Made by a program: the position numbers and the translations under genes
Part shown: positions 2-57,858 of the stretch, piece after piece
Layout: each line of letters opens with the position of its first letter
Numbering within the stretch: the first letter of the stretch is position 1
Assembly: GCA_029565935.1 (NCBI GenBank)
Contig: JAKQNF010000002.1
Coordinates: 67,065-131,064 of the forward strand
Length of the DNA stretch: 64,000 nt
Direction: 5' to 3'
From: Bacillota bacterium
GTDB lineage: Bacteria; Bacillota; DTU025; MWDF01
Notes under the pieces: model-generated
What the model saw: only the letters and a program-made list of their open reading frames with translations
The model's database searches: none
What the model was told of the DNA's origin: nothing

Positions 2-775
2 GGCACGCCAGACTATCTTAACTGCCCGATGGACAAGACACAGTACGACAAGTTCTACGATGCGCTCATAGCTGCCGAGAGGGCCCCTCTTTCAAAGGGC
101 GAGGACATGAAGCTCTACGAGGCTTGCATGCCCATTGAGGAGATGGCCGACAGAGGAAGGGACACTATAAGGTTCGGGCCGCTAAAACCGGTCGGACTTG
201 AAGACCCGAGGACAGGGTCGGAGCCTTACGCCGTCGTACAGCTAAGGCGCGAGGACCTTCCCGGGAGCAGTTATAATATCGTAGGCTTCCAGACAAGGCT
301 CAAATGGCCTGAGCAGAAAAGAGTCTTCTCCATGATACCCGGGCTTGAGAATGCGGAATTCGTCAGATACGGAGTAGTGCACAGGAACACCTACCTCCAT
401 TCACCCGGTCTTCTAGGTCCGGATATGATGTTCTTATCCAGGGAAGGCCTCTTCGCGGCGGGCCAGCTTACGGGATCTGAAGGCTATGTGGAATCTACCG
501 CCACCGGCGCGCTCGCTGGCATAAACGCCGCAAGGCTGGCGTTGGGGCATGACACGCTAGTATTCCCCGAGACTACTTGCATAGGCGCGCTGGCAGCATA
601 CGTTACGCACGGCAAAGGGGACGTTTTCGATCCTATGGGCATCTGCTTCGGCCTGCTTCCTACTCCTAAAGGGCGTATGAGGTCGAAGAAGATGAAAAGG
701 CAGATGCAGATAGATGCTGCCAGGGAGGATTTCGAGGCCTTCATCAAGGAAGCGGGTGATCTGTTTGCCGGATGA
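2..775 (+). CDS. trmFO: tRNA (uracil54-C5)-methyltransferase TrmFO (Gid), C-terminal part; 5' end cut by the window edge
   Basis: The frame is open from base 2 with no upstream stop. The protein (..GTPDYLNCPMDKTQYDKFYDALIAAE..) aligns with the TrmFO C-terminal half. It sits directly upstream of xerC-hslVU as in Bacillus (gid-codV-clpQY). Confidence 0.85.
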   Translation, partial: GTPDYLNCPMDKTQYDKFYDALIAAERAPLSKGEDMKLYEACMPIEEMADRGRDTIRFGPLKPVGLEDPRTGSEPYAVVQLRREDLPGSSYNIVGFQTRLKWPEQKRVFSMIPGLENAEFVRYGVVHRNTYLHSPGLLGPDMMFLSREGLFAAGQLTGSEGYVESTATGALAGINAARLALGHDTLVFPETTCIGALAAYVTHGKGDVFDPMGICFGLLPTPKGRMRSKKMKRQMQIDAAREDFEAFIKEAGDLFAG

Positions 776-1661
776 TACCATCGAGCAGTTCCTGGACTAC
801 ATCTTGCTGGAGAGGAGACTATCACCCAGGACAGCCTCATCTTACCGGCTGGACCTGATTTCGTTCTCCCGATTTATCGAAAAGTCCACTTCCAAGGATT
901 TTAGGCCGGGGTCGGTCCAGAGCATGGAAATCAGGAAGTACTTATCGAGCCTGCAATCCAGAGGACTGGCACGCAGGACTATGTTAAGAAGGCTCGCAGC
1001 CCTCAGGAGCTATTACAAGTTCTGTATCAGAAGAGGGCTCTGCGATGAGAATCCGACAGATTCTCTTGCGCCCATGAGAAGGGACAAGAGACTTCCAAGG
1101 GCTATGGAGTTGGCCGATGTTGAAGCTTTCCTTGCGACGATCGACGGCGGCGGGCCGTTGAAGATAAGGGACAGGGCCATCTTCGAGCTTCTCTATTCCT
1201 CGGGCTTAAGGCTTTCGGAGCTCGTCGGACTGAACCTGCGCGACTATGACGGCTCCGGCTCTACCGTACGGGTCATGGGGAAAGGATCCAAAGAACGGAT
1301 CGCTCCTGTCGGCAGCATCGCCAAGTTCGCCCTTGAGCGCTATCTTCGCGACGCGAGGAGTGTTCTATCTTCGGATAAGGACCAGAAGGCTATCTTCCTT
1401 TCAAGACGAGGAGGCAGGCTCACCGGAAGGCAGGTGCAAAGGCTGATGAGAGGTTACGACATAACGGCGGGCTTGAGCGGAAGCCCGTCGCCGCATGCCC
1501 TTAGGCATTCCTTCGCAACGCACCTGCTGGATTCGGGGGCCGATTTGAGATCGGTGCAGGAGCTGCTGGGACACTCGGACATATCGTCGACACAGATATA
1601 CACTGCCGTGTCCAGGGAACGTCTTATGGAGTCCTATAAGAAGAACCACCCAAGGTCATGA
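756..1661 (+). CDS. xerC: Tyrosine site-specific recombinase XerC (CodV-like)
   Basis: It has the N-terminal core-binding motif IEQFLDYILLERRLS. It has the C-terminal catalytic motifs ..HALRHSFATHLL.., ..LLGHSDISSTQIYT.. The ORF opens at 714, overlapping the trmFO end. The most plausible start is GTG 756 or TTG 765. Synteny is trmFO-xerC-hslV-hslU. Confidence 0.85.
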   Translation: MICLPDDTIEQFLDYILLERRLSPRTASSYRLDLISFSRFIEKSTSKDFRPGSVQSMEIRKYLSSLQSRGLARRTMLRRLAALRSYYKFCIRRGLCDENPTDSLAPMRRDKRLPRAMELADVEAFLATIDGGGPLKIRDRAIFELLYSSGLRLSELVGLNLRDYDGSGSTVRVMGKGSKERIAPVGSIAKFALERYLRDARSVLSSDKDQKAIFLSRRGGRLTGRQVQRLMRGYDITAGLSGSPSPHALRHSFATHLLDSGADLRSVQELLGHSDISSTQIYTAVSRERLMESYKKNHPRS

Positions 1662-16800: not shown

Positions 16801-17479
16801 CTTCCTCATATCCAAAGGCATGCCTCCGAAGAGCGCCTTCCAGATAATGGAGCGGGTTAGGAAGGGCAAGGGCCTGTCTCAAGCGGACGAGGCCGCGATG
16901 TCGGGCCTGGCCCTGCCCGACTGGTACGTCGATTCCTGCAACAAGATCAAGTACATGTTCCCGAAGGCTCATGCATGCGCATACGTCATGATGGCCTTCA
17001 GGATAGCCTACGCAAAGGTACACATGCCCGTTGCCTTCTATAGCGCGTACCTTACGATCAGGGCCCTCGATTTCGATCCCTCGTTCGCGTCCATGTCGGT
17101 GAGGGAAATGGACAAAGCCATCCGCGCCGTGGATTCCAACAAGGCCGCAACCCAGAAGGAGAAGGACGTCGTCCCTGTGCTCGAGGTGCTGAGGGAATCA
17201 CTACTTAGGGGCATAAGGATCAAGCAGGTGGACATCGCATCCTCCCATCCTACGAGATTCACTTCCGAGGTGGACGGCATAAGGGCGCCATTGTCATCAG
17301 TGCCCAGGTTGGGGGAGAAGGCCTCCTTGAAGATTGGCGAGGCAAGGTCGAAATCGCCGTTCAGCTCAATTGACGAGCTGAAGAGAAGAGCCGGCCTGAC
17401 GAAGGCGCACATATCGGCCCTCAGGGACGCCGGTGCCTTGTCCGGGCTTAAGGAAAGCGAACACCTGGAACTGTTCTGA
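13835..17479 (+). CDS. polC: DNA polymerase III PolC-type (Gram-positive replicative polymerase), apparently lacking the 3'-5' exonuclease insertion
   Basis: The N-domain comes first. An OB fold follows. The PHP domain has VELHCHTKMSALDS.. The PolC-specific GSRGSVGSSLVATLLGITEVNPLPPHYRCGHCK..CPSCGK zinc module comes next. The palm region is present. Position after proS and before rimP-nusA matches Bacillus. Length is 1214 aa, against about 1430 aa for canonical PolC. Confidence 0.85.
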   Translation: MGWSSLHYRLMPSDGHMDLKKFLESITDTPASKELAFCRIREILVGFKDGGWTVRMEGPAEHMEEAVLCVGRALAERAADIRAEISYLPYEKDMWIKKAWSSLAARVSCTSGVNLGALLSCEPSWDGPVGLTVPSEAQLMSFEKREVPEAISDIVNAKTGVSVEVKLSCAAVRSTDYSDSLPEEPEQEEQSSSTDEDVSGIHVYGSPIKIASVDISGIVDQSDYVAVEGEAMNQAVFSSKWDKAVLSFIVADPTGAIYCSISADSEDDLPTVEGRVKVAGSVVMDDRKGTQDAEPLMLVEDVEACENRAPDVLRPCQRVELHCHTKMSALDSVSDPEDVVMAAKQMGQTAVAITDHGVIYSFPRFYQAASRMGIKPVFGMEGYLKDEISEDTSHFTVLVKDKEGLANLYRMVSKSHLEYFKRHPLVPRSLALELRRGLLYGSACAGGELFRLALRGADEAELIEAMRFYDYVEVMPAENSSYLVREGTLPDLDAIRSLNKKLVEAAKKAGKPFVATGDVHYLRKEDSTLRKVLLAGQDYKDFDEQPPLHMRTTEEMLREFAYLGKQDALRAVVLGPNMMVDGIESLKPVPDGLSTPIIEGAEEDVRDISRSEAERLYGSPLPEAVGKRLDKELSSIIGNGFASIYLVAMKLVKKSLSDGYLVGSRGSVGSSLVATLLGITEVNPLPPHYRCGHCKTSDFGPFAQKHGFDLPDRECPSCGKMMGKEGHDIPFEVFLGFEGDKVPDIDLNFSGEYQPRIHKYTEEMFGADNVFRAGTIGTIAEKTAYGFVRALEERSGAKVGRAQSARLAIGATGVRRTTGQHPGGIIVLPEGRDIHEFTPVQHPANSKEKGIITTHFEYTALHDNLLKLDLLGHDDPTMIRMLEEITGESFRQVPFDDAATMSIFSGIDALGIDARKYGQEVGTIGIPEFGTRFVRGMLSETRPSTFDELVRISGLSHGTNVWLDNARDVIRSGDGGLKDVISVRDDIMNFLISKGMPPKSAFQIMERVRKGKGLSQADEAAMSGLALPDWYVDSCNKIKYMFPKAHACAYVMMAFRIAYAKVHMPVAFYSAYLTIRALDFDPSFASMSVREMDKAIRAVDSNKAATQKEKDVVPVLEVLRESLLRGIRIKQVDIASSHPTRFTSEVDGIRAPLSSVPRLGEKASLKIGEARSKSPFSSIDELKRRAGLTKAHISALRDAGALSGLKESEHLELF

Positions 17480-29155: not shown

Positions 29156-30238
29156 ATGGGAAGCGCGTCAGAAGGATCGATTACCATAATTGCGGTCAAT
29201 CCGGGTTCTACTACCACGAAGTTGGCAGTATTCAAGGACGGTAAATCCGTAAAATCCCTGAGCATCGAGCACGACAAAGCGGAGCTTGATTCGATGGGCC
29301 AGATAAAGAACCAGCTGAAGTATAGGATAGATGCAGTAGAGGCCGCCCTAGCCGGCGAAGCCGTATCCTTAAACAGGATATCGGCCGTCGTCGGAAGGGG
29401 CGGCCTTCTCAAGCCTATGGAGGGCGGAGTCTGGGAGGTAGACGATAGGATGGTGGAAGACGCGCTCGAGCACCCCGTCTCGCCGCATGCGTCCAACCTA
29501 GGCTGCGCCATTGCCCTGCACCTCGCAAGAAAAGCCGATGTACCTGCCTATATAGTGGATCCTGTCAGCACGGACGAATACGAGCCGGAAGCGAGGGTCT
29601 CCGGCCTGCCTCAAATACCGAGGATATCCCTTCTGCATGCCCTCTCGGCAAGGTCTTCCGCCAGGCGCGCGGCCGGCGAGCTCGGGCTGAAGCTCGAGGA
29701 CGCAAGGTTCGTGATCGCACACATGGGTGGCGGGACGACTATATGCGCGCTGAGGGACGGAAGGTTGATCGACGCAAACAACTCGAACGACGAAGGCCCT
29801 TTCACGCCGGAAAGGACGGGCACCATGCCGTCGGGGGCCACCGTGGACCTTTGCTATTCGGGTAGGTACACCAAGGCCGAGATCAAGGACATGTTCCTTA
29901 GGAAGGCCGGCCTCTTCGCGTATGAAGGGACGTCGGACGCAAGGGAGATCGACCGCAGGATTGATACGGGTGATACAAAGGCTTTGGAAGTGATGCAGGC
30001 GATGGCATACCAGATCGCCAAGGAGATAGGAGCTTACGCCGCGGTTCTGTCGTTCAGGCTGGACGCGGTGATTCTGACAGGAGGGTTGGCCAAATGGCCC
30101 CGCCTGGTGGACGAGATCGTACGTCGAGTGAAGTTCCTGGGCCCGATAATGCTATATCCGGGCGAGAACGAGATGCAGGCCCTGGGCGACGGGGCCACCC
30201 TAGCAGTGAAGGGCGCCGTCCCCGTCAAACGTTATTAG
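29156..30238 (+). CDS. buk: Butyrate kinase (branched/short-chain acyl kinase), copy 1
   Basis: It has the ASKHA fold and Buk motifs (..IIAVNPGSTTTKLAVF.., ..AHMGGGTTICA..). Confidence 0.85.
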   Translation: MGSASEGSITIIAVNPGSTTTKLAVFKDGKSVKSLSIEHDKAELDSMGQIKNQLKYRIDAVEAALAGEAVSLNRISAVVGRGGLLKPMEGGVWEVDDRMVEDALEHPVSPHASNLGCAIALHLARKADVPAYIVDPVSTDEYEPEARVSGLPQIPRISLLHALSARSSARRAAGELGLKLEDARFVIAHMGGGTTICALRDGRLIDANNSNDEGPFTPERTGTMPSGATVDLCYSGRYTKAEIKDMFLRKAGLFAYEGTSDAREIDRRIDTGDTKALEVMQAMAYQIAKEIGAYAAVLSFRLDAVILTGGLAKWPRLVDEIVRRVKFLGPIMLYPGENEMQALGDGATLAVKGAVPVKRY

Positions 30239-30248
30239 GGAGGTCCTT

Positions 30249-31157
30249 ATGATGCTCAATACCTTCGAGCAGATAATAGACGAGGCGAGATCGGGTGGCA
30301 AGCAGCGCATAGCGATCGCCGCTGCGGGGGACGCAGATGTGCTGGAGGCAGTGAAGCTGGCGATGGAGATGGACCTTGCCGACTTCACGCTTTTCGGAGA
30401 TGAGGGAATCATCAGGAAGCTTGCCGGGGATGTCGGGCTCGACCTGGCAGGAGTCGAGGTCATCGACGAGACAGGACTGCAGATGGCGGCCTTGAAGGCG
30501 GTCCAGTACGTAAGCTCCGGAAAGGCCGGGACCCTGATGAAGGGCCTCATAGGCACGACCGATTTCCTTAGGGCGGTACTAGACAAGGAAGTGGGTTTGA
30601 GAACCGGAAGCCTCATATCACACGTCGCGGTGATACGATCCCCTAAGTTCGACAGGTTCTTCTACCTGACGGACGGAGCTATGAACATATCTCCGACCCT
30701 TGACCAGAAGGTCCAGATAATCAAAAACGCGGTGAAGATCGCCCATGCCCTGGGGAACGAGAATCCCAAGGTGGCGTGCCTTGCTGCCGTCGAGACGGTC
30801 AATCCCGACATGCCTGCCACGATAGACGCCTCGCTGCTGGCCAAGATGAGCGACCGCAAGCAGATAAAAGGCTGTGTCGTTGACGGACCCTTCGGGCTCG
30901 ACAACGCCGTGTCCGCCGAATCGGCGAAGCACAAGGGTGTTTCGGGCCTCGTGGCGGGCAAGGCCGACATCTTGATGTGCCCTGAGATCAATACGGGCAA
31001 CGTGATCTACAAGACGCTCAGCTATTTCGCGGATGTCGAATGCGGTGCTGTGATCTCAGGCGCCCGCGCTCCGATAGTTCTGACGAGCCGCGCAGACTCG
31101 CCCAGGACCAAGCTACTTTCGATGGCGACGGCCGCGACCGTGGCCAAGAACTCATGA
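30249..31157 (+). CDS. ptb: Phosphate butyryltransferase
   Basis: It is PTA/PTB family (..RIAIAAAGDADVLEAVKLA.., ..DGAMNISPTLDQK..) and 302 aa. Confidence 0.85.
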   Translation: MMLNTFEQIIDEARSGGKQRIAIAAAGDADVLEAVKLAMEMDLADFTLFGDEGIIRKLAGDVGLDLAGVEVIDETGLQMAALKAVQYVSSGKAGTLMKGLIGTTDFLRAVLDKEVGLRTGSLISHVAVIRSPKFDRFFYLTDGAMNISPTLDQKVQIIKNAVKIAHALGNENPKVACLAAVETVNPDMPATIDASLLAKMSDRKQIKGCVVDGPFGLDNAVSAESAKHKGVSGLVAGKADILMCPEINTGNVIYKTLSYFADVECGAVISGARAPIVLTSRADSPRTKLLSMATAATVAKNS

Positions 31158-31182
31158 TCTTCCTTAGGTAAGGAGGTCCGAT

Positions 31183-32232
31183 ATGAGGCTTCTGATAATC
31201 AACCCCGGTTCCACGTCGACCAAGGTCGCCATATTCGAGGACGGCAAGCAGACGGCGGCCGAGACGCTAAGGCACGCGACCGAGCTGATATCCCAGTTCC
31301 CCACGGTATATGACCAGCTGGAATTCAGGACCGCCGCGGTCACGGCGTTTCTGGTATCCTGCGGGAACCCTGCGCTCGACGGGGTCGTCGGCAGGGGAGG
31401 CCTGCTACCGCCCATGCCCAGCGGCGTCTATGAGGTTGACGACGCCCTCGTGGACAAGCTGCGGCATCCGATGGGACAGCACGCTTCGAACCTGGGTGGT
31501 CTTATAGCGAGGAACATAGCCAAGGAAAGAGGGCTCAGGGCCTTCATCGCCGATAGCGTGACGACGGACGAACTGGCCCCTCTGGCAAGATATTCCGGCC
31601 ATCCGATCATCCCGAGGATAAGCATATTCCACGCCCTCAACCAGAAGTCGGTGGCCAGGCGCGCGGCATCGGACATGGGCAGGAGGTACGAGGAGGTCAA
31701 CTTCATAGTCTGCCACCTGGGCGGCGGGGTGAGCGTGGGCGCCCACAAAGCAGGGATGGTGGTGGACGTTGCCAACGCGCTTGACGGCGAGGGCCCTTTC
31801 GCACCCGAGAGGGCGGGCACGCTGCCCATCACCGGGCTCATCGAGCTTTGCTATTCTGGCAGGTACACGCACGCAGAGGCAAGGAAGCTCCTCACTGGAG
31901 GGGGCGGCTTCGTGGCGCACCTAGGTACCAACTCAGGACAGAAGCTGAGCGAGATGGTGGATGCCGGTGACGAACATGCGATCCTCATCGAGAAGGCTTT
32001 CGTCTACGGCGTGGCCAAGGAGGTCGGCAGGATGGCCGCCGTCTTGGAAGGTCGCGTCGATGCGATATTGATCACCGGCGGCCTGGCGTATTCGGCCAGG
32101 ATCTGCTCGTTGATAGAAGAGAGGGTCTCTCCCTTGGCCAAGGTGCTCAGATACCCCGGCGAGGACGAGATGATGGCCCTTGCCGAAGCAGGGGCTAGGG
32201 CCCTGGGAAAGGCATCTACGAAATCCGTCTGA
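31183..32232 (+). CDS. buk: Butyrate kinase, copy 2 (paralogue of 29156-30238)
   Basis: MRLLIINPGSTSTKVAIF..CHLGGGVSVGA.. It shares about 50% identity with copy 1 by eye. Confidence 0.85.
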   Translation: MRLLIINPGSTSTKVAIFEDGKQTAAETLRHATELISQFPTVYDQLEFRTAAVTAFLVSCGNPALDGVVGRGGLLPPMPSGVYEVDDALVDKLRHPMGQHASNLGGLIARNIAKERGLRAFIADSVTTDELAPLARYSGHPIIPRISIFHALNQKSVARRAASDMGRRYEEVNFIVCHLGGGVSVGAHKAGMVVDVANALDGEGPFAPERAGTLPITGLIELCYSGRYTHAEARKLLTGGGGFVAHLGTNSGQKLSEMVDAGDEHAILIEKAFVYGVAKEVGRMAAVLEGRVDAILITGGLAYSARICSLIEERVSPLAKVLRYPGEDEMMALAEAGARALGKASTKSV

Positions 32233-32245
32233 AAGGAGGTCAGCC

Positions 32246-32455
32246 TTGTTGAAGAAAGTGGTAATCGACGCCGAACGCTGCAAAGGGTGCGAGCTTTGCG
32301 TCAAGTATTGTCCCAAGCAATGCCTTGACATCGCCGATTCGACGAACTCCAAGGGATATCTTCCCGCGTTCCTGGCAAGAGAGGATGACTGCATAAGCTG
32401 CGGCATATGCGGGAGGATGTGTCCTGATTCCGCGATCGAGGTCTTTAAGCCCTGA
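32246..32455 (+). CDS. vorD: 2-oxoacid:ferredoxin oxidoreductase delta subunit (4Fe-4S ferredoxin)
   Basis: Two CxxCxxCxxxCP motifs are present. It is about 70 aa. A TTG start follows the RBS AAAGGAGGT. It is the first gene of a 4-subunit OFOR cluster. Confidence 0.7.
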   Translation: MLKKVVIDAERCKGCELCVKYCPKQCLDIADSTNSKGYLPAFLAREDDCISCGICGRMCPDSAIEVFKP

Positions 32456-32478
32456 ACGACAGAAATCTTAAGGAGGCT

Positions 32479-33552
32479 GTGAAAGTGTCTGAGAGGAAGC
32501 TCTTCAAGGGTAACGAAGCGGTTGCCGAAGCTGCCGTAAGGGCAGGCTGCCGTTACTTCTTCGGCTACCCTATTACTCCTCAGAACGAGATACCCGAATA
32601 CATGTCAAGGAGGCTGCCGGAAGTCGGCGGCTGTTTCCTGCAGGCCGAGAGCGAAGTGGCCGCGATAAACATGGTCTACGGAGCGGCGTCGGCAGGAGCG
32701 CGGGTCATGACTTCATCCTCCAGCCCTGGCATCTCCCTCAAACAGGAGGGGATATCCTACATAGCAGGCTCGCTCCTGTCACCGCTGATTGTGAACATGG
32801 TCCGCGGAGGACCGGGCCTGGGTGACATACAGCCAGCTCAAAGCGATTACTTCCAGGCCACCAAGGGGGGAGGGCACGGCGACTACAGGCTCATAGTCTT
32901 CGCACCGGCCAGCATCCAGGAGATGGTGGACCTGATCTACATATCATTCGAAACCGGTGAGAAGTACAGGATGCCCGTCATGATACTCGCCGATGGCGTG
33001 CTTGGCCAGATGATGGAATCCGTTGAATTCCCAGCGATGAAGGAACCCAAAGACCCCAAATCGTCGGCGTACGGCGTGACAGGCGCGCAAGGAAGGCCCG
33101 CCAGGGTTGTGAAGGCGTTCGACCTGGACCCTGAGCTGATGTACAATCTCAACGAGAAACTCGCAGACACCTGGAAGAAGGCGGAAGAGAGCGAGGTCAG
33201 GGTGGAAGAATACCTGATGGACGACGCAGAGTTCGCTCTGGTCGCCTACGGCACCTCGAGCAGGATATGCCGCTCCGTAGTGGACAAGGCAAGGTCGGAG
33301 GGCGTAAAGCTCGGCCTGATACGGCCCATAACCGTATGGCCTTTCCCGAAGAAGGCCATTGGCAAGGCTGCTGGTAAGGTGCGCGGTTTCTTGACGGTCG
33401 AGATGAGCCTCGGCCAGATGGTGGAGGACGTAAGGCTCGCAGTAGACGGTAAGAAACCAGTTTACCTGCATGCAGTCCCGGGAGGGCTCATCCCGAAGAG
33501 GGACGAGGTGCTCGCCCAGGTCAAATCCATCATCCAGGGGAAGGGGGTCTGA
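32479..33552 (+). CDS. vorA: 2-oxoacid:ferredoxin oxidoreductase alpha subunit (VOR/KOR-type)
   Basis: ..KGNEAVAEAAVRAGCRYFFGYPITPQNEI.. is the OFOR alpha signature. It has a GTG start. Confidence 0.8.
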   Translation: MKVSERKLFKGNEAVAEAAVRAGCRYFFGYPITPQNEIPEYMSRRLPEVGGCFLQAESEVAAINMVYGAASAGARVMTSSSSPGISLKQEGISYIAGSLLSPLIVNMVRGGPGLGDIQPAQSDYFQATKGGGHGDYRLIVFAPASIQEMVDLIYISFETGEKYRMPVMILADGVLGQMMESVEFPAMKEPKDPKSSAYGVTGAQGRPARVVKAFDLDPELMYNLNEKLADTWKKAEESEVRVEEYLMDDAEFALVAYGTSSRICRSVVDKARSEGVKLGLIRPITVWPFPKKAIGKAAGKVRGFLTVEMSLGQMVEDVRLAVDGKKPVYLHAVPGGLIPKRDEVLAQVKSIIQGKGV

Positions 33553-33555
33553 GCG

Positions 33556-34302
33556 ATGCAGGACGTATACAGGACATCAAATAGCCTCACTAAGAACACG
33601 ATGCACTATTGCCCGGGATGTGCCCACGGCATAATCCACAAGCTAGTCGCAGAATCGATTGACGAGCTAGGAATAAGGGAGAAGACGATCGGTGTGGCCC
33701 CCGTGGGCTGCGCTGTCCTCGCCTATAACTACTTCAACATCGACTGCGTGGTGGCCGCGCACGGCAGGGCGCCGGCGATGGCGACCGGGATAAAGAGGGT
33801 GCACCCCGACCGTATTGTGTTCACATACCAAGGCGACGGCGACCTCGCTTCGATAGGAGCCGCCGAGATAGTTCACGCCGCGATGAGGGGCGAGAAGATA
33901 ACCGTGATATTCGTGAACAACGCGATATACGGCATGACCGGAGGCCAGATGGCACCTACGACGCTCGTCGGCCAGAAGACGACCACCTCGCCGTATGGAA
34001 GGCAGGTCGAGCACTGCGGCAGCCCCATAAGGATAGCCGAGATGCTATCGACGATACCTGGCGCCTATTCCGTATCGAGGGTAACGGTGACCACACCGGC
34101 AAACCTCATGAAGGCGAAGAAGACCATCAAGAGGGCCTTCCAGAACCAGATCGACGGCAAGGGCCTGAACATAGTCGAAGTGCTGTCAACATGCCCTACC
34201 AACTGGGGAAGGACACCTTATGAATCGATGCGCTGGGTGGACGAGAACATGGTGCCTTACTACCCCCTCGGAGATTTCAAGGTACCTGAGGAGGCGAAGT
34301 AG
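33556..34302 (+). CDS. vorB: 2-oxoacid:ferredoxin oxidoreductase beta subunit (TPP-binding)
   Basis: ..HYCPGCAHG.., the TPP motif [23 protein letters not shown] are present. Confidence 0.85.
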
Positions 34303-34839
34303 ATGCAGAAGGAATACATCCTTTCAGGTTTCGGTGGCCAAGGCCTGATGCTGGCCGGCGTACTACTCTCTGAAGCTGGGATATTGGATGGCAAGAACGT
34401 CTCTTGGATACCGTCGTACGGCCCGGAGATGAGAGGAGGCACCGCGAACTGCGCCGTCGTCGTATCAGAGGAGCCCATCGGCTCTCCTATAGTCGACAAC
34501 CCCGACGTCGTAATAGCCATGAACCTGCCCTCCATGGACAAATTCGAGCCCTTGATCAAGAAGGGCGGCCTGATGGTCTTCAACTCTAGCCTGATCAAGA
34601 GCACTCCTAAGAGGGACGACCTCACTTATGTGGCTGTTCCGGCGAACGAGATAGCCGAAAGCCTCGGCAGCGAGAAGGTGGCCAATATGGTCATGCTGGG
34701 AGCGATGCTCAAGGCTGACGGTTGGGTGTCGACCAGCTCGCTCGGTAAAGTAATCGAGAAGAAGATGACCGGCTCGAAGGCCAAGTTCATTCCCATGAAC
34801 ATTGCAGCCATCAAGAAGGGCGAGGAGATAGCAGGATAG
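34303..34839 (+). CDS. vorC: 2-oxoacid:ferredoxin oxidoreductase gamma subunit
   Basis: ..[17 protein letters not shown].. is the gamma-subunit signature. It is 178 aa. Confidence 0.8.
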
Positions 34840-34907: not shown

Positions 34908-35492
34908 ATGGAGAAGTGCCCTTGTGCAAGGGAAGCCAAGGAGATCCGTCTTTCTGGATCGACGGTATACAGAGGCAAGATTATGAACGTAGATGAAGAT
35001 TCCGTCTTGCTGCCGTCTGGAAGGACTGCAACAAGGGAAGTAGTCAGGACGAGGGATTCCGTAGCATGCGGCATCTTAGACGACGAAGGCAGGATATGCC
35101 TGGTGAGGCAGTACAGGTATCCGGCCGGGCGCTCTATGTGGGAAATCCCCGCAGGAAGGATTGAACCTGACGAATCACCGGAGGAGGCTGCCATAAGGGA
35201 GGCCGGGGAGGAGACGGGCATGGGCTGCGCCATAGACGGAAAGGTGGCGGGCTTCTTCATAGCGGCGGGATTCGCGAGCGAGTTCATGCACATGTATCTG
35301 ATGCGCATCACAGGCACGTCCGACGCAGTGCCGGATGAGGACGAGGACCTTGTCGCCGTGTTCTTCCGTCCAACGGAGCTTCAAAGCATGATGGACGGTG
35401 GCGTGATAGAGGATTCGAAATCCCTCATATTCATCAACTGGTACTTGAGGAAGATCGGCTATGATGGCTCCGAGCAGCCGGGGATGCTATAA
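34908..35492 (+). CDS. NUDIX hydrolase (ADP-ribose pyrophosphatase-like)
   Basis: The Nudix box is GRIEPDESPEEAAIREAGEETG. It is 194 aa. Its TAA stop lies inside dif-like site 1. Confidence 0.75.
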   Translation: MEKCPCAREAKEIRLSGSTVYRGKIMNVDEDSVLLPSGRTATREVVRTRDSVACGILDDEGRICLVRQYRYPAGRSMWEIPAGRIEPDESPEEAAIREAGEETGMGCAIDGKVAGFFIAAGFASEFMHMYLMRITGTSDAVPDEDEDLVAVFFRPTELQSMMDGGVIEDSKSLIFINWYLRKIGYDGSEQPGML

Positions 35493-35509
35493 TAATTATT
35501 ATGTAAACA
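35482..35509 (+). other. dif-like XerC/XerD core site 1: GGATGCTATAA-TAATTA-TTATGTAAACA
   Basis: The right arm matches the B. subtilis dif XerD arm TTATGTAAACT at 10 of 11 positions. It has an AT-rich 6-bp centre. The left arm ends in ATAA. It is 26/28 identical to site 2. It contains TGcTATAAT and lies 22 nt upstream of the xerD ATG. Confidence 0.5.
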
Positions 35510-35530
35510 ATGCGGGAGGGTGATGAGAGC

Positions 35531-36436
35531 ATGCTTCCGGCAATCGAGGACTTCCTTGGTTTTCTTGCCGTCGAAAGAGGGCTGGCCGAGAACTCCCTCA
35601 CCGCTTACGCGCGGGACCTGGAGGATTATGAGGCATTCCTGAAGGGCAGGGGCGGTACCGGAACCTGCACTGTGGAGATGCTCCTTGCCGCCGACGGCAG
35701 GACGGTGGGGCTTTTCGTCGCCCACCTTTCCGGGAAGGGCCTTGCCGCTTCGAGCACGGCCAGGAAGCTGGCCGCCGTGCGCGGCCTTTACAAGTACCTC
35801 GCAAGGCAGGGGACCGTCAAGGCCGACCCTACGGTGGCGGTCGAATCGGTGAGACAAAAGAGGGCGCTTCCGAAATGCTTGAGCCTCGATGAGACGAAGG
35901 CCCTGTTGAGCTCGTTCGAAGGCAGTAATCCCCGGGATTTAAGGGACCTTGCCATGCTCGAGGTGCTCTACGGATGCGGCCTTAGGGTCAGCGAGCTTGT
36001 GAACTTGAAAGTTGGGGACGTCAACACCGAACACGGCTACGTGAGGTGCGTAGGGAAAGGCTCCAAGGAGAGGATAGTGCCGCTTGGCAGCTACGCTGCG
36101 AGGGCGGTGGACGAGTACATGGCAAAAGGCAGGTCGGAGCTGTGCAACCTCAGGCCGTCGCACTGGCTGTTCGTCACCTTCGACGGCAGCCCTATGAGCC
36201 GCCAGGCCTTCTGGAAGAACCTGAAGAAAAGATGCATGGCGGCAGGCATAGGCTCCGAGGTCAGCCCGCATACGCTAAGGCATTCGTTCGCCACCCACAT
36301 GCTGGAGAACGGCGCCGATCTAAGGGCGGTGCAGGAGATGCTCGGACATGCGGACATCGGCACGACGCAGATATACACGCACCTTACGAAGATAAGGCTA
36401 AGACAAGTGTACGACGAGCACCATCCTAGGTCCTAA
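35531..36436 (+). CDS. xerD: Tyrosine site-specific recombinase XerD (RipX-like)
   Basis: MLPAIEDFLGFLAVERGLAENSLTAYARDL..HTLRHSFATHMLENGADLRAVQEMLGHADIGTTQIYTH are XerD motifs. The RBS GGGAGGG lies upstream. The ORF-track start at 35510 is less likely. Confidence 0.85.
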   Translation: MLPAIEDFLGFLAVERGLAENSLTAYARDLEDYEAFLKGRGGTGTCTVEMLLAADGRTVGLFVAHLSGKGLAASSTARKLAAVRGLYKYLARQGTVKADPTVAVESVRQKRALPKCLSLDETKALLSSFEGSNPRDLRDLAMLEVLYGCGLRVSELVNLKVGDVNTEHGYVRCVGKGSKERIVPLGSYAARAVDEYMAKGRSELCNLRPSHWLFVTFDGSPMSRQAFWKNLKKRCMAAGIGSEVSPHTLRHSFATHMLENGADLRAVQEMLGHADIGTTQIYTHLTKIRLRQVYDEHHPRS

Positions 36437-39014: not shown

Positions 39015-39995
39015 ATGAAGAAAGGCACGATACTGAGCGGGATGAGGCCGACCGGAAAGCTGCACCTGGGCAACTACCTTACGTTGAGGAACTGGGTGAA
39101 GCTGCAGGAAGTATACAACTGCAATTTCCCGATAGTCGACTGGCATGCTCTTACGACGGGCTACGAGCACACCGAGGAGCTACCTACCATGATAAGGGAG
39201 ATGGCCCTGGACTGGCTCGCCGCTGGAGTGGACCCCGAGAAGTCGACCGTGTTCGTGCAATCGCAGGTGAAACAGCACGCTGAGATGCACCTGCTGCTTT
39301 CGATGGTCACCCCTCTCGGCTGGCTAGAGCGCTGCCCCACCTACAAGGAGCAGCTCAGGCAGATGTCCGACAGGGAGATACAGACATACGGCTTCCTTGG
39401 GTATCCCGTGCTCATGGCTGCTGATATCCTCCTGTACATGGCCGATACCGTGCCGGTCGGGCAGGACCAGCTGCCGCACCTGGAGCTCGCCAGGGAGATG
39501 GCTAGGCGCTTCAACTTCCTGTACGGCGATACCCTGGTCGAGCCGGACGCGCTGCTTAACAACGTGCCATTGCTTCCAGGTACCGATGGAAGGAAGATGA
39601 GCAAGAGCTACGGCAACTACATCGCCCTGTCCGACGAACCTGACACGGTGGCCAAGTCCATATCCCAGATGGTGACAGACCCCGCCAGGATAAGGAAGAC
39701 GGATCCGGGCCATCCCGACATCTGCACGGTATATGCCTATTACTCGGCATTCTTCCCTGAGATGTTAGGTCAGGTGAGGTTGGAGTGCGAAGGCGCCCAG
39801 ATAGGCTGCGTCGCGTGCAAGAAACGCCTTGCGGCCGTGATGATTGAGGCTCTAGCCCCGATACATGAAAAGAGGGTGAAGCTAGCTTCAGATCCTTCGA
39901 CGATTGACGACATCCTCGCAGAAGGCTCGGCGAGGGCGCGCGAGAAGGCCGAGACTACGATGGAGAAGGTAAGGGCGGCGATGCACCTCGCATGA
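39015..39995 (+). CDS. trpS: Tryptophanyl-tRNA synthetase
   Basis: ILSGMRPTGKLHLGNY (HIGH region) and the KMSKS motif are present. The RBS GGAGGATTT lies upstream. The ORF-track start at 38994 is less likely. Confidence 0.88.
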   Translation: MKKGTILSGMRPTGKLHLGNYLTLRNWVKLQEVYNCNFPIVDWHALTTGYEHTEELPTMIREMALDWLAAGVDPEKSTVFVQSQVKQHAEMHLLLSMVTPLGWLERCPTYKEQLRQMSDREIQTYGFLGYPVLMAADILLYMADTVPVGQDQLPHLELAREMARRFNFLYGDTLVEPDALLNNVPLLPGTDGRKMSKSYGNYIALSDEPDTVAKSISQMVTDPARIRKTDPGHPDICTVYAYYSAFFPEMLGQVRLECEGAQIGCVACKKRLAAVMIEALAPIHEKRVKLASDPSTIDDILAEGSARAREKAETTMEKVRAAMHLA

Positions 39996-40783
39996 TTACA
40001 GTCCCGACCCAAGCCGCAAAAGAGGGGCCCGCGGCATTCAACACCGCCGGCTACAGCGGACCGCTGAGCCTACTGCTGGAGCTCATCGAGCAGCGTAAGG
40101 TGGACATCTGTGAAGTGTCGCTGGCGGACATCACAGATGACTATCTCAGGAGGATAAGCGCCCTAGAATGGCCCGACTTGGAGGAATCTTCCAGGTTCCT
40201 GGTGATAGCCGCGACATTGATATTCATCAAGGCAAGGGTATTGATGCCAAAAAGGAAGGACCTTGAGGCCGCCCAGGAGGAAGAGGAAGGCCCCGATCCC
40301 GCCGAGCTGCTGGTCGACAGGCTAAGGGCGTACAAGCTGTTCAGGGACGCCGCCAGGAAGTTTAAGGTCCTAGAGGCGGAAGCTTCGAGGATGTACGGAC
40401 GCGGCAGGTACGAGCAGCTGGGGGTCAGATGGCAGGGAAATCCCCTCGAGGGGGTCCTTGCGGATGACTTCTGGGAGATAATCCAAAGGCTCGAGGACAG
40501 GAACAAGGAAGCTGAGATCGCTGCGCCCTATGAGGAGACGCCGCTGGCGGATTTCATGAACTCCCTGCTTGGCGCACTCAAGAACAAGAAGAGCGAGGAT
40601 TTCATAAAGGCGCTCGGCGCCGTTAAGGACATGGGTGCTGTGATCGGGAGCCTGCTGGCCCTCCTGGAGCTGGCGAAGATGGGGATAATCACGATAAGCC
40701 AGGCATCGACGGACGGGCCTATATGGATGGCCTGGAGGGAGGAGGCGCAAGATGGACCTGTTGCGGATGAAAGCTCTGATTGA
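39992..40783 (+). CDS. scpA: Segregation and condensation protein A
   Basis: ..FNTAGYSGPLSLLLELIEQRKVDICEVSLADITDDYL.. is the ScpA signature. Confidence 0.8.
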   Translation: MITVPTQAAKEGPAAFNTAGYSGPLSLLLELIEQRKVDICEVSLADITDDYLRRISALEWPDLEESSRFLVIAATLIFIKARVLMPKRKDLEAAQEEEEGPDPAELLVDRLRAYKLFRDAARKFKVLEAEASRMYGRGRYEQLGVRWQGNPLEGVLADDFWEIIQRLEDRNKEAEIAAPYEETPLADFMNSLLGALKNKKSEDFIKALGAVKDMGAVIGSLLALLELAKMGIITISQASTDGPIWMAWREEAQDGPVADESSD

Positions 40784-41300
40784 GGCCATCATCTTCGCTT
40801 CCCCCGAGCCTGTGGACCAGGATGATCTGGCAAGCTTCGTCGGAGTGGACAAGAATACGATGAGCATGCTGCTGAAGGACATCGAAGAAGCCTACGACGC
40901 GCCTGATTCGGGGCTGAGGCTGGTTCGCATAGGCGAGGGGGTGGCGTTTACGACGCATCCTCCGCTCGCCGACGACATATCGGGCTATTTGGCCGCCATA
41001 AGGCATACATCGCTTACGGACGCCTCAATGGAGACGCTGGCGATAATCGCGTACAAGCAGCCTATCACCAAGGCCGAGATCGAGCAGGTAAGGGGTGTCG
41101 GGGCCGAATCGGCGCTCATCACTCTCGCACAAAGGGGCCTGATCACCGAGAAGGGCAGGAAGAGCGCACCGGGCCGGCCGATACTATACGGCACAACGAA
41201 GGAATTCCTGGTCTACATGGGACTCGCGGACCTCAAGTCGCTTCCCGGCCTTGAGGGGATCGACGATGCCGAGGGACCCAAGCTGCCGGGCTTAGAATAG
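40752..41300 (+). CDS. scpB: Segregation and condensation protein B
   Basis: ..ALIEAIIFASPEPV.. and ..LETLAIIAYKQPITKAEIEQVRGV.. are winged-helix ScpB motifs. Confidence 0.8.
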   Translation: MDLLRMKALIEAIIFASPEPVDQDDLASFVGVDKNTMSMLLKDIEEAYDAPDSGLRLVRIGEGVAFTTHPPLADDISGYLAAIRHTSLTDASMETLAIIAYKQPITKAEIEQVRGVGAESALITLAQRGLITEKGRKSAPGRPILYGTTKEFLVYMGLADLKSLPGLEGIDDAEGPKLPGLE

Positions 41301-54274: not shown

Positions 54275-55060
54275 ATGAAGATCCTAGTTTCAAATGACGA
54301 TGGCATACACGCCGAAGGACTCGCGTCTTTGTGCAGTTGCCTTACCGAGGCTGGTTTCCAGGTGTACGTTTGCGCACCCGACAGGGAAAGAAGCGCAGCA
54401 AGCCATGCGCTTACGATGTATAGCCCACTTAGACTTATCGAGGTAGGTAATCCCAACTTCGATGCGTTTAGGGTATGGTCAGCCGATGGCACACCCGCAG
54501 ATTGCGTAAAGATAGCCCTAGAGCTTCTGATGAAATCGGATCCACCGGATTATGTGATCTCCGGAGTAAACAGAGGCCCGAATTTGGGCACTGATATCCT
54601 ATATTCCGGCACCGTCGCAGCGGCCGCCGAAGGGTGTTTCGCGGGCATTCCATCGCTTGCCGTCTCTTGTACCGATAAGATGAATCCAAACTACCAGACC
54701 GCATCCAAATTCGTCTCAGCGCATATATCTGACATATTTGCGAACGAACTGCCGCAGGGGACCATGCTTAACATAAACGTACCGGCCGACATAACGAGAC
54801 AAGTGGCCAACACTCCCTATATGTTTACACGGGCAGGGACCATGAAGTACGTCGATATATTCGACGTCAGGCACGATCCGCGAGGTAGGGAGTACATATG
54901 GATGTCAGGTAACCCCATGGACCTGGACATTGAAGAGGATTTCGATACTGTGGCCATCAAGAAAGGCCTAATATCCATTACACCAATCAAGTTTGATGTA
55001 ACGGATTACTCGTTGCTTGCGAAGCTTAGGAACAGTAGTGGTGGCCATAGGTTGCTATAA
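54275..55060 (+). CDS. surE: 5'/3'-nucleotidase SurE
   Basis: MKILVSNDDGIHAEGL is the canonical SurE N-terminus. The RBS AGGAG lies upstream. Its TAA stop lies inside dif-like site 2. Confidence 0.85.
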   Translation: MKILVSNDDGIHAEGLASLCSCLTEAGFQVYVCAPDRERSAASHALTMYSPLRLIEVGNPNFDAFRVWSADGTPADCVKIALELLMKSDPPDYVISGVNRGPNLGTDILYSGTVAAAAEGCFAGIPSLAVSCTDKMNPNYQTASKFVSAHISDIFANELPQGTMLNINVPADITRQVANTPYMFTRAGTMKYVDIFDVRHDPRGREYIWMSGNPMDLDIEEDFDTVAIKKGLISITPIKFDVTDYSLLAKLRNSSGGHRLL

Positions 55061-55078
55061 TATTTATTATGTAAACTT
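55051..55078 (+). other. dif-like XerC/XerD core site 2: GGTTGCTATAA-TATTTA-TTATGTAAACT
   Basis: The right arm is an 11/11 match to the B. subtilis dif XerD arm. It is 26/28 identical to site 1. It is immediately followed by TTCTAGG, which echoes the B. subtilis XerC arm on the opposite strand. Confidence 0.55.
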
Positions 55079-55093
55079 CTAGGTATAAAATAC

Positions 55094-55169
55094 TGGCAGG
55101 GGAGACAGGACTTGAACCCGCAACCCTCGGTTTTGGAGACCGATGCTCTGCCAATTGAGCTACTCCCCT
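55094..55169 (-). tRNA. trnW: tRNA-Trp (anticodon CCA)
   Basis: The cloverleaf was folded by eye. The acceptor is AGGGGAG/CTCCCCT with discriminator G plus CCA. The anticodon loop is CTCCAAA. The T-loop is GGTTCAAGTCC. It is about 80% identical to E. coli tRNA-Trp. Confidence 0.9.
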
Positions 55170-55262
55170 GCGATGGCGTATTCATATGCAATAAGTATTT
55201 TACGTGCACAAGGCGTTATTGTCAAATGATTTAAAAGTAGAATACCGTGAGGAGGTAGACTT

Positions 55263-56287: not shown

Positions 56288-56308
56288 CTTTATTTGAGGT
56301 GATGATTA

Positions 56309-56521
56309 ATGCCCATATTTGATTTCAAATGTGAAAACTGTGGATATACCTTCGAAACCCTGGCAAAGAGAGATGAACAGGTTAACTGTCCAAAATGCAA
56401 CTCCGAGAGAACAAGAAAGCTCTTGTCGAAGTTCGGCTTCTCATGTGGTTCTAACTTTAGATCCTCATTAGGTTCAAGCGATTGTAGTGGTTGCAGTAGT
56501 ACTTCCTGTAGCCCTACATGA
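56309..56521 (+). CDS. FmdB-family zinc-ribbon protein with Ser/Cys-rich tail
   Basis: MPIFDFKCENCGYTFE...CPKCNS is a CxxC-x17-CxxC zinc ribbon. It is 70 aa. The C-terminus is SSLGSSDCSGCSSTSCSPT. Confidence 0.6.
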   Translation: MPIFDFKCENCGYTFETLAKRDEQVNCPKCNSERTRKLLSKFGFSCGSNFRSSLGSSDCSGCSSTSCSPT

Positions 56522-56565
56522 AGCCATAGCCATTAGGGCCGGTTCGGCCCTAAGATAATAATATA

Positions 56566-56593
56566 AGTTTACATAATGTGTATTATGCGACAT
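56566..56593 (-). other. dif-like XerC/XerD core site 3 (minus strand): ATGTCGCATAA-TACACA-TTATGTAAACT
   Basis: The right arm is an 11/11 match to the B. subtilis XerD arm. The left arm matches the E. coli dif XerC arm GGTGCGCATAA at 8 of 11 positions. It is inverted relative to site 2 and lies 1.5 kb away. Confidence 0.5.
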
Positions 56594-56701
56594 CATAGAT
56601 TTCAGTCATAATGCTCCCCCACATATCAGAAGTTGTTAGTAGGAGAAGTACGTGGAAAAGTTATGATGAAGTGCTGAATCCTCATGTATGCGTCGAATAG
56701 T

Positions 56702-56746
56702 AAAAATAGAGTGCCGCGGTCACGAACTACGGCACTCTATTTTTGG
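56702..56746. terminator. Bidirectional rho-independent terminator between the zinc-ribbon gene (+) and yneA-like gene (-)
   Basis: AAAAAT-AGAGTGCCG-loop-CGGCACTCT-ATTTTTGG. A-tract and T-tract flank a 9-bp stem. Confidence 0.5.
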
Positions 56747-56750
56747 CTAA

Positions 56751-57071
56751 TTATACTGCAGGCTTAGGGATAACTATGACTCTGCCTGGATATACGATAC
56801 CATCCTCAATGTCGTTCAACTCTATTGTCCTTGCTACTGCTGATCTTATATCGGTTTCGTAACCATAGACTTTTCTTACGCATTCCCAGACCGTATCACC
56901 TACGCGGACAAGGACCTCTTCAAGTTCAGTTGCATCGTTTCTACCCATCACGCAGGAACTGAATATAATGCCGAAGGTCAATATGAAAACGGATATGCCA
57001 GTAACGGTCAGGATTAGTTTAAGGGGGGATTTTCCCCTCAATCTCTTTGTCCTGTACATAATACCTATCAT
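56751..57071 (-). CDS. yneA: YneA-like SOS-induced cell-division inhibitor (N-terminal TM plus C-terminal LysM)
   Basis: It is divergent from lexA as in B. subtilis. About 106 aa run from MIGIMYRTKRLRGK with the RBS GGGTGGG upstream. The ORF-track N-terminal extension is rejected because it would include the LexA box. A C-terminal LysM (..VLVRVGDTVWECVRKVYG..GRVIVIP) is present. A minus-strand promoter TTGACA-17-TATACT at 57112-57140 is read directly. Confidence 0.6.
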   Translation of the reverse strand: MIGIMYRTKRLRGKSPLKLILTVTGISVFILTFGIIFSSCVMGRNDATELEEVLVRVGDTVWECVRKVYGYETDIRSAVARTIELNDIEDGIVYPGRVIVIPKPAV

Positions 57072-57091
57072 TAATCCCACCCACCCCTTAC

Positions 57092-57105
57092 CGAACATAT
57101 GTTCT
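57092..57105. promoter_or_regulatory. LexA (SOS) box 1: CGAACATATGTTCT
   Basis: It matches the Bacillus LexA/DinR consensus CGAACRNRYGTTCG at 13 of 14 positions. It sits at the predicted yneA transcription start. Confidence 0.6.
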
Positions 57106-57147
57106 ACTTTGAGTATAGGGGCCTGTAGGGCTTGTGTCAACAACAAT

Positions 57148-57161
57148 CGAACAAATGTTTG
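57148..57161. promoter_or_regulatory. LexA (SOS) box 2: CGAACAAATGTTTG, overlapping the lexA -35 (TTGTAT 57159-57164; -10 TATATT 57182-57187)
   Basis: One mismatch to the consensus half-site. This is the classic autoregulatory position. Confidence 0.5.
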
Positions 57162-57215
57162 TATACTTGATTGCTGTCTGATATATTAGTGTTAATCAAG
57201 AATCGAGGTGTAATC

Positions 57216-57830
57216 ATGCCTAATCTTAATGATAGAGAGGCGCAGATACTAAGCTTCATATCAAAGGAAGCTGCGGAGAAGGGTTTTCCCCCTTCCGTGA
57301 GAGAAATATGCGCTGCGGTAGGACTAAAATCAACATCTACAGTGCATGGTTATCTGAACTCACTAGAAAAGAAGGGTTTCATAAGGCGTGATCTCACAAA
57401 ACCAAGGGCAATCGACGTAATCCAGGATACGGTAGACTCAATCAACGTTAGGAGAATAGCAAAGGGAGTGCCTTTGGTAGGAGCTGTTACCGCAGGCATG
57501 CCAATACTGGCCACAGAGAACATCACCGACTATATCCCCCTACCCAAGGATTGGGTAGGCGACGACCAGGTATTTATGCTTAAGGTTAAGGGCGATAGTA
57601 TGATAGGTGCAGGAATCAATGAAAGTGACATGCTTATCGTAAGGAGTCAATCCGACGCTCAAAACGGTGAGATCGTAGTCGCGATGATAAATGATGAGGC
57701 GACGGTTAAGCGTATCTATAAAACGAAACAAGCTATAGAGCTTCATCCGGAGAATCCGGCATATCAAGTGATAATCTCACCGGATACCAAGGTAATAGGA
57801 AAAGTTATCGGGTTGCTCAGGAAAATATAA
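57216..57830 (+). CDS. lexA: LexA repressor
   Basis: MPNLNDREAQILSFISKEAAEKGFPPSVREICAAVGLKSTSTVHGYLNSLEKKGFIRR is the wHTH region. The C-terminal S24 peptidase has the Ala-Gly cleavage region and Ser/Lys dyad (..VKGDSMIGAGI..). The RBS CGAGGTG lies upstream. Confidence 0.9.
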   Translation: MPNLNDREAQILSFISKEAAEKGFPPSVREICAAVGLKSTSTVHGYLNSLEKKGFIRRDLTKPRAIDVIQDTVDSINVRRIAKGVPLVGAVTAGMPILATENITDYIPLPKDWVGDDQVFMLKVKGDSMIGAGINESDMLIVRSQSDAQNGEIVVAMINDEATVKRIYKTKQAIELHPENPAYQVIISPDTKVIGKVIGLLRKI

Positions 57831-57831
57831 T

Positions 57832-57858
57832 GCCCCGCTTTTTAGCGGGGCTATTCAT
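57832..57858. terminator. Terminator hairpin between lexA (+) and the convergent unknown gene (-)
   Basis: GCCCCGC-TTTTTA-GCGGGGC is followed by a T-rich tract. Confidence 0.4.

Follow-up and report, generated by a model that had tools for sequence, protein, structure and literature searches.

Xer recombinases are usually viewed as constitutive housekeeping enzymes, with genes that lie far from dif. In the stretch of DNA analyzed here, 64,000 nucleotides of a Bacillota bacterium (contig JAKQNF010000002.1, forward strand, positions 67,065 to 131,064; hereafter the window), a dif-like 28-mer, which we call site 1, lies between a NUDIX hydrolase gene and the recombinase gene xerD. This position raises the question of what a dif-like sequence does on the putative promoter of a Xer gene, and whether it is a recombination site at all. 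We put slightly better than even odds (about 0.55) on site 1 being a binding site for XerD alone on the xerD promoter, and not a conserved XerC/XerD recombination site, because its 13-nt XerD arm block is invariant across nine lineages, the distance from this block to the xerD ATG is fixed, and the left arm is not conserved.

Site 1 and its counterparts in the window

The coordinates of site 1 and of the other features discussed are collected in Table 1. Site 1 as found in the window follows the 11-6-11 layout of dif and has ATAA-N6-TTAT inner symmetry. Its XerD arm, TTATGTAAACA, agrees at 10 of 11 positions with the consensus TTATGTAAACT, and equally with the arm of B. subtilis dif and with the XerD arm of site 3, the probable dif described below. 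A perfect 14-bp palindrome, ATAATAATTATTAT, spans the center (35489-35502), and an extended -10-like element lies in the left arm; both had been pointed out in an initial annotation of this DNA, and both are present. That annotation was also right that the site overlaps an upstream stop codon: the TAA codons of the NUDIX open reading frame (ORF; end 35492) and of surE (end 55060) occupy positions 9-11 of sites 1 and 2, respectively. The overlap with a stop codon is not kept in relatives.

A search of the window at up to three mismatches returned site 2 as the sole other copy of the 28-mer. It lies in direct orientation, 19,568 bases away (the 19.6 kb first reported), and on recount is identical to site 1 at 25 of 28 positions, not 26. 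No shuffled window yielded a pair like sites 1 and 2, which places the pair beyond chance. A third dif-like site, which the initial annotation had implied, is found on the minus strand at 56566-56593 (site 3). We lengthened the window by 8.9 kb, to 72.9 kb, with an identical contig (L170; 0 mismatches over 12.8 kb). Within these 72.9 kb, the exact XerD-arm 10-mer TTATGTAAAC occurs three times, at sites 1, 2, and 3, all within 22 kb of the point at which the GC skew switches.

The gap between site 1 and the xerD ATG is 21 nt. The start at 35531 is the one conserved in relatives and chosen by most gene callers. One gene call (L188) instead begins at an in-frame ATG abutting site 1 (35510-35530), for a XerD of 308 aa; the ATG at 35510 is absent or shifted in relatives and is probably not used as the xerD start.

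Table 1. Positions of the principal features, in window numbering
Feature	Coordinates	Strand	Sequence, evidence, or remark
Site 1, dif-like 28-mer	35482..35509	+	GGATGCTATAATAATTATTATGTAAACA; arms GGATGCTATAA-TAATTA-TTATGTAAACA; read from sequence
Invariant XerD-arm block (13 nt), core of site 1	35497..35509	+	TATTATGTAAACA; alignment A1, nine lineages
Extended -10-like TGcTATAAT in left arm of site 1	35485..35493	+	TGCTATAAT; read from sequence
NUDIX hydrolase (YffH/AdpP-like), TAA stop within site 1	34908..35492	+	Upstream neighbor of xerD in nine lineages
xerD Shine-Dalgarno region	35514..35523	+	GGGAGGGTGA; read from sequence; G residues invariant in A1
xerD, 301 aa	35531..36436	+	TIGR02225 XerD, 350.8 bits against a cut-off of 329.6
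scpA and scpB (Smc-ScpAB subunits)	39992..41300	+	Smc-ScpAB is the complex unloaded by XerD at XDS in B. subtilis
xerC (codV-like), partner recombinase	714..1661	+	TIGR02224 XerC, 328 bits; NF001399, 316 bits
Site 2	55050..55077	+	GGTTGCTATAATATTTATTATGTAAACT; GGTTGCTATAA-TATTTA-TTATGTAAACT; between surE and tRNA-Trp
Site 3	56566..56593	-	ATGTCGCATAATACACATTATGTAAACT; ATGTCGCATAA-TACACA-TTATGTAAACT; between second NUDIX gene and yneA-like/lexA pair
Replication terminus zone	56300..57850	.	Cumulative GC-skew plateau/maximum and coding-strand switch

Conservation of site 1 among relatives

A XerD protein scan of one genome per species identified five close relatives with XerD 73-94% identical to that of the window, all others being at 52% or below. 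A homologue search and contig look-ups added three further lineages, with XerD 84%, 79%, and 74% identical. Together with the window, these make up nine lineages (window, L001, L175, L177, L002, L003, L004, L005, and L180). Each of the five scanned relatives has TTATGTAAAC immediately before xerD and, in the 10 kb to each side, no further copy. All nine versions of site 1 end in TTATGTAAACA, 18-23 nt before the xerD ATG, and in all nine the upstream neighbor of xerD is the NUDIX gene. Across an alignment of the nine NUDIX-xerD spacers (A1), column identity averages 58%, and a single unbroken run of invariant positions emerges, the 13-nt TATTATGTAAACA. Beyond it, only some G residues of the Shine-Dalgarno region and the ATG itself are unvaried.

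The rest of the site varies. The left arm and center read GGATGCTATAA and TAATTA in the window, TGATGCTATAA and TAATTA in L001, GGATGCTATAA and TATTTA in L175, GAATGATATAA and TATTTA in L177, GCATGGTATAA and TATAATA (7 nt) in L002, GTCCCTCCTTT and ATGATA in L003, GTTGCGCCTAT and GTGATA in L004, GCCGCGCCTTT and GTGATA in L005, and GTCGCGCCTAT and GTGATA in L180. The 11-6-11 layout with inner symmetry is therefore found in the window, L001, L175, and L177, and L002 has a center of 7 nt. By left arm the lineages form two subclades, A with a GRATGMTATAA-like arm and B (L003, L004, L005, and L180) without the inner ATAA, where the arm no longer looks like that of a dif. Conservation of the XerC arm is a mark of dif, and by this measure site 1 does not qualify, its left arm differing widely among lineages.

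What the left arm does keep looks like part of a promoter. Subclade A retains TGnTATAAT, with n being C, C, C, A, and G in the window, L001, L175, L177, and L002, and this variable n reads as the signature of an extended -10 and not of a protein-specific arm. In subclade B, TGATATTAT, likewise of extended -10 type and located 9 nt downstream, replaces TGnTATAAT and overlaps the XerD arm. Between subclades the -10-like element has thus shifted by 9 nt, although the XerD arm itself, and its spacing from the ATG, are unchanged; in all nine lineages this element lies on or beside the XerD arm.

Outside this clade the site disappears. L174, with XerD 58% identical and a SpoIIM gene upstream, has no XerD-arm site at xerD, and none was found upstream of xerD at more distant Firmicute loci. 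Every lineage of the NUDIX-xerD clade (9 of 9) keeps the site linked to the gene, a linkage absent where SpoIIM precedes xerD.

A predicted XerD half-site on the xerD promoter

For E. coli it is established that XerD can occupy its half-site in the absence of XerC, and such binding underlies XDS, a class of dif-like sites in the B. subtilis terminus that is considered below. Relative to the predicted transcription start, the XerD arm spans roughly -10 to +10 in both subclade layouts of site 1. Bound XerD would then cover the -10/+1 region of its own promoter; alternatively, it would be a roadblock to read-through from the NUDIX gene. Either way xerD would be repressed, which would amount to negative autoregulation. 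Autorepression of xerD via site 1 is, we infer, likely. The suggestion of the initial annotation that XerC/XerD binding may regulate xerD thus keeps its XerD part, given the conservation of the XerD arm in nine lineages, and loses its XerC part, the left arm being variable.

It is possible that sites 1 and 2 also double as terminus-proximal, XDS-like docking sites at which XerD unloads Smc-ScpAB, because site 2 shares the XerD arm without promoter context. A fuller proposal would combine the two roles: a XerD-only half-dif operator on the xerD promoter, within a small cluster of XerD sites beside dif, that sets dosage and marks the terminus for SMC unloading. We consider this combination somewhat less likely than not.

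Several points weigh against XerD acting alone at a promoter here. A promoter scan requiring a -35 found no full sigma-70 -35/-10 pair ahead of xerD, and because of this the xerD promoter call draws on extended -10 matches only. A scan of the NUDIX-xerD spacer found no terminator, and xerD may be transcribed mainly from upstream. The organism is uncultured, and both the promoter and XerD binding are predicted here from sequence. In the lineage of the window itself, site 1 has the full dif architecture and its close match to site 2, and XerC binding there is possible. The likeness to the XDS motif is drawn from secondary descriptions. Finally, in the 72.9 kb scanned, no XerD-arm sites were found over the 16 kb on the right side of the terminus, so no symmetric XDS cluster is seen. 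Apart from these points, an Rfam search returned tRNAs only and no other known RNA element.

The replication terminus and the probable dif

Which of the three sites, if any, is dif? The GC skew is positive from position 1 to ~57 kb and negative beyond, and the cumulative G-C curve of the extended window reaches its maximum at 57,832 and then falls through 72.9 kb. Up to 56.3 kb the genes are plus-strand, and past that point most are minus-strand (switch at ~56.3-56.7 kb). Because the GC skew and the coding strand switch there, we place the replication terminus within the window, a feature that the initial annotation had overlooked. Between 52 and 65 kb, the G+C content also falls, from about 0.57 to 0.43-0.50.

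In the literature, dif is GGTGCGCATAATGTATATTATGTTAAAT in E. coli and ACTTCCTAGAATATATATTATGTAAACT in B. subtilis (PMC3025954). Sites 1, 2, and 3 are identical to the latter at 20, 23, and 21 of 28 positions, so that similarity alone is not decisive. Conservation separates them better. In L165-168 (SurE 68% identical), site 3 is 27/28 identical though the flanks differ, and the skew of that locus flips at site 3; in L182 (SurE 62% identical) the site reads ATGTCGCATAATACACATTATGTTAACC and is 25/28 identical. The XerC arm and center are invariant at 17 of 17 positions in three lineages. Compared with the dif arm published for D. vulgaris (PMC2731167), this XerC arm, ATGTCGCATAA, agrees at 10 of 11 positions, and exact copies of it recur in unrelated dif sites. 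As for location, sites 1 and 2 lie 22.3 and 2.8 kb to the left of the cumulative skew maximum, and site 3 lies 1.2 kb from it. A dif site is expected as a single copy at the shift point of the GC skew, and site 1 is one of three dif-like sites and far from that point. Because of its position at the skew switch and its invariant XerC arm and center, site 3 is the best dif candidate, and it is probably the true dif of this chromosome. The xerD gene would then lie ~21 kb from dif.

Site 2 keeps its position, after surE and before tRNA-Trp, in six lineages, but both of its arms drift. The left arms include GGTTGCTATAA, GATTACCGTAA, AGTTGTCGTAA, and GGTAGTCGTAA, and the right arms TTATGTAAACT, ATATGTAAACC, TTATGTAAAAA, and TTATGTAAAAT. 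Site 2 may be a second XerD-type site or, less likely, dif itself. Sites 2 and 3, ~1.5 kb apart, are moreover inverted relative to each other, an arrangement that is conserved (55050-56593 in the window, 10792-12333 in L165, and 8382-9913 in L182). The segment between them holds tRNA-Trp (minus strand), a pduL-type phosphate propanoyltransferase gene, and the small NUDIX gene, and it shows no sign of inversion, having one orientation in all lineages seen.

Two divergent genes, yneA-like (LysM, a weak match) and lexA, adjoin the probable dif on its right, at 56751-57830. Beside lexA, a 119-aa ORF (57881-58240, minus strand) has no Pfam or NCBIfam match; at 84% identity in L165, it is better conserved there than most neighboring genes. 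Further on, at 61236-61256, CATAATATACGTTATG is an ATAA-N6-TTAT palindrome without a XerD outer arm, inside a 573-aa ORF without a family match, and is probably due to chance.

XerD-arm-like sequences past the right end of the window, in L170 and L165, were rejected as XerD sites. The first, GACGGGTTGAC-ATAATA-GTCAACCCGT with a run of T residues after it, is a terminator hairpin (L170 8581-8615, ~64.3 kb, after an RNase H-like gene); it resembles the XerD arm in TTATGTCAACC, its counterpart in L165 is at 17404-17431, and its stem shows a compensatory change (GGTTGAC...GTCAACC in L170, GGTTTAC...GTAAAC(T) in L165). The second, close to a tRNA gene, is TTGACA and resembles a -35 box. Among viral-labeled IMG/VR contigs (L193-L225), 33 carry dif-like sites matching ATAATANTTATTATGTAAAC, and in some of them (L209 and L219) the arms are identical to those of site 3 (ATGTCGCATAATAGTTATTATGTAAACT). 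These may be prophage-adjacent host dif sites or sites of Xer-using elements. The 33 matches are diverse dif sites and say nothing specific on site 1.

Gene order around site 1

The initial annotation had also proposed that site 1 marks a break from Bacillus gene order, with two blocks fused exactly there, and that Xer-site-mediated rearrangement shaped the chromosome. Neither proposal was supported. A tblastn comparison of window proteins with relatives gave one order throughout, from pnp to lexA: pnp, buk, ptb, buk, vorABC, NUDIX, xerD, deoB, pdp, trpS, scpA, and scpB, and on to plsY, mgtC, surE, pduL, NUDIX, yneA-like, and lexA. On the single 24.6-kb contig of L003/L161, the distance from xerD to surE is 20.1 kb, as in the window. 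Between pnp (which ends at 29113) and xerD lies a 6.4-kb buk-ptb-buk-vorABC-NUDIX cluster, and because these seven metabolic genes intervene, no two Bacillus blocks meet at site 1. In B. subtilis, nudF and ptb-buk-bkd presumably lie on the ripX side of the map, which would put any break near 29.1 kb.

No recombinant junction between sites 1 and 2 was found in the 22 contigs carrying the exact NUDIX protein, all of which continue into xerD. Site 2 is likewise not a junction, lying 1.5 kb from the probable dif at a position kept in six lineages. Given the constant pnp-surE order in relatives and the 22 contigs, we rejected a rearrangement or fusion at site 1. A mobile element between sites 1 and 2 was rejected as well, as the interval consists of housekeeping genes in the same order in all relatives; the foreign composition or variable presence expected of DNA flanked by the sites of integrative mobile elements exploiting Xer (IMEX) is not seen there.

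Alternative explanations for site 1

Could site 1 be purely of the XDS type, with XerD unloading or stalling Smc-ScpAB at sites 1 and 2 and the promoter position having no regulatory meaning? XDS are dif-like XerD sites of the terminus region, and both site 1 and site 2 are within 22 kb of the skew switch. The genome has scpA and scpB, and site 2, with the same arm but outside any promoter context, is conserved in six lineages. We nonetheless find this explanation unlikely. The arm of site 1 is invariant in 9 of 9 lineages at 18-23 nt from the ATG, whereas that of site 2 tolerates ATATG, AAAAA, and AAAAT; the -10-like element differs in position from one subclade to the other but is always found at the XerD arm or adjacent to it; and no sites were found on the right replichore within 16 kb. 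It is hardly credible that the three oriented sites (+, +, -) make up a replication fork trap, or some other polar barrier, around the terminus. Sites 1 and 2 are indeed oriented opposite to site 3, with a skew plateau beside site 3, but there are three sites only, the orientation of site 3 is no evidence alone, no RTP or Tus homologue was seen, and the 119-aa ORF by lexA matches no family. Arrest of replication forks is not known for XerD sites.

Two further explanations would take either the dif architecture or the promoter at face value. If site 1 were a working XerC/XerD site (a second dif, the attachment site of an integrative element, or a rearrangement junction), exchange with site 2 could have shaped the chromosome or still be reshaping it. 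The 11-6-11 architecture in the window, L001, L175, and L177, the 25/28 match to site 2 in direct orientation, and the presence of both xerC and xerD are consistent with this, but it is quite improbable given the variable left arm, the loss of ATAA in four lineages, and the 7-nt center in L002. Unlike centers disfavor strand exchange between Xer sites, and those of sites 1, 2, and 3 (TAATTA, TATTTA, and TACACA) differ. Moreover, the 19.6 kb between sites 1 and 2 are filled by housekeeping genes (trpS, scpAB, der, and plsY) in constant order in relatives, NUDIX is followed by xerD in 22 of 22 NUDIX-carrying contigs, and site 1 lies 22 kb from the skew switch, with site 3 as the better dif. Very improbable, too, is an ordinary AT-rich promoter or 5' leader with a coincidental likeness to dif, or another operator such as a Fur-like box (ATAAT-A-ATTAT). 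TGnTATAAT and TATTAT are promoter-like, and the palindrome of the window resembles a 7-1-7 Fur box at 12 of 14 positions. However, a promoter has no need of GTAAACA, yet 13 nt are invariant and match the XerD arm of the probable dif, and the two other occurrences of the 10-mer in 72.9 kb are both dif-like sites. The Fur-like center and palindrome are lost in L175, L177, L002, and all of subclade B, and we rejected a Fur box on this ground. A XerD half-site on the xerD promoter thus remains the reading that we favor.

Comparison with known Xer sites

The primary description of XDS is reportedly that of Karaboja et al. (2021, Mol Cell 81:756). In B. subtilis, XDS are dif-like terminus sequences at which Smc-ScpAB is unloaded by XerD, with no need of XerC or dif (PMC11840125, PMC11894783, PMC10945525). 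Site 1 resembles them in being dif-like, with its XerD half conserved and its XerC half degenerate, the XDS side of this comparison being taken from secondary description. Furthermore, sites 1 and 2 lie in the terminus region, apart from dif, and within the 72.9 kb covered they may parallel XDS in being more than one per terminus, in a host that has ScpA and ScpB. Unlike the case with XDS, one site here coincides with the putative xerD promoter and keeps its spacing from the start codon across lineages, and the two non-dif sites seen within 72.9 kb are both on one side of dif. XerD binding and SMC unloading at sites 1 and 2 are, for their part, predictions from sequence.

A second parallel is the difSL-xerS module, for which Le Bourgeois et al. 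speculated that binding at the site autoregulates the gene (PMC1914069). There, too, the recombinase site is immediately upstream of the recombinase gene and near the terminus. In single-recombinase systems the site always adjoins the recombinase gene (PMC9765430, PMC2731167), and that literature stresses that classical XerCD genes are far from dif. The difference is that difSL-xerS has a single recombinase and its linked site is the real dimer-resolution site, whereas here there is a XerC and XerD pair, the linked site keeps the XerD half only, and the probable dif is 21 kb away. In the archaeon Halobacterium salinarum, the xerA operon is immediately preceded by a dif-like sequence that is associated with a chromosome domain boundary (PMC11840125). 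This sequence resembles site 1 in preceding an operon that encodes its own recombinase, but belongs to an archaeal single-recombinase system.

With canonical dif, site 1 of the window shares the 11-6-11 layout, ATAA-N6-TTAT, a XerD arm matching at 10 of 11 positions, and 20/28 overall identity to B. subtilis dif. It differs in not being unique, in lying off the skew switch, and in having neither a conserved XerC arm nor a conserved spacer length; site 3 fits the canonical definition better. Two near-identical dif-like sites in direct orientation also recall IMEX, but the intervening DNA here consists of conserved housekeeping genes of host-like composition and conserved synteny and is not a mobile element. 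Taken together, these comparisons suggest that the case of site 1 is a variant of both the XDS and difSL-xerS kinds of module, differing from each.

Other features of the region

The partner recombinase XerC is 37% identical to XerD of the window. A dif-like site was looked for upstream of xerC, and none was found. The xerC gene, which is followed by hslV and hslU, is 55 kb from the probable dif, and both Xer genes are thus near the terminus. By comparison, xerD genes are mostly near the replication origin (Kono et al., PMC3025954).

In the cluster upstream of xerD (29156-34839), two butyrate kinase paralogues flank phosphate butyryltransferase, and a three-subunit 2-oxoacid:ferredoxin oxidoreductase (VorB-like) follows. 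In relatives, a small ferredoxin ORF (68-69 aa) is also called within this cluster. Elsewhere in the window, the 5' part of infB (IF-2, 1094 aa; 20001-22000) has a G+C content of 0.63 and an AT skew of 0.39, a composition that suggests a low-complexity N-terminal extension.

Implications

The three sites illustrate how automated dif prediction by similarity would choose the wrong site here, as site 2 is the closest to B. subtilis dif and conservation and position favor site 3. If the proposed role of site 1 is true, a conserved XerD half-site on the promoter of its own gene would be a simple case of feedback control on XerD level, and the first natural Xer autoregulation in a two-recombinase system. 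It would also mean that XDS-type sites exist outside Bacilli. Through sites 1 and 2, the nonrecombinational role of XerD known from B. subtilis and S. aureus, with XDS and SMC unloading, would then reach into a deep-branching anaerobic lineage.

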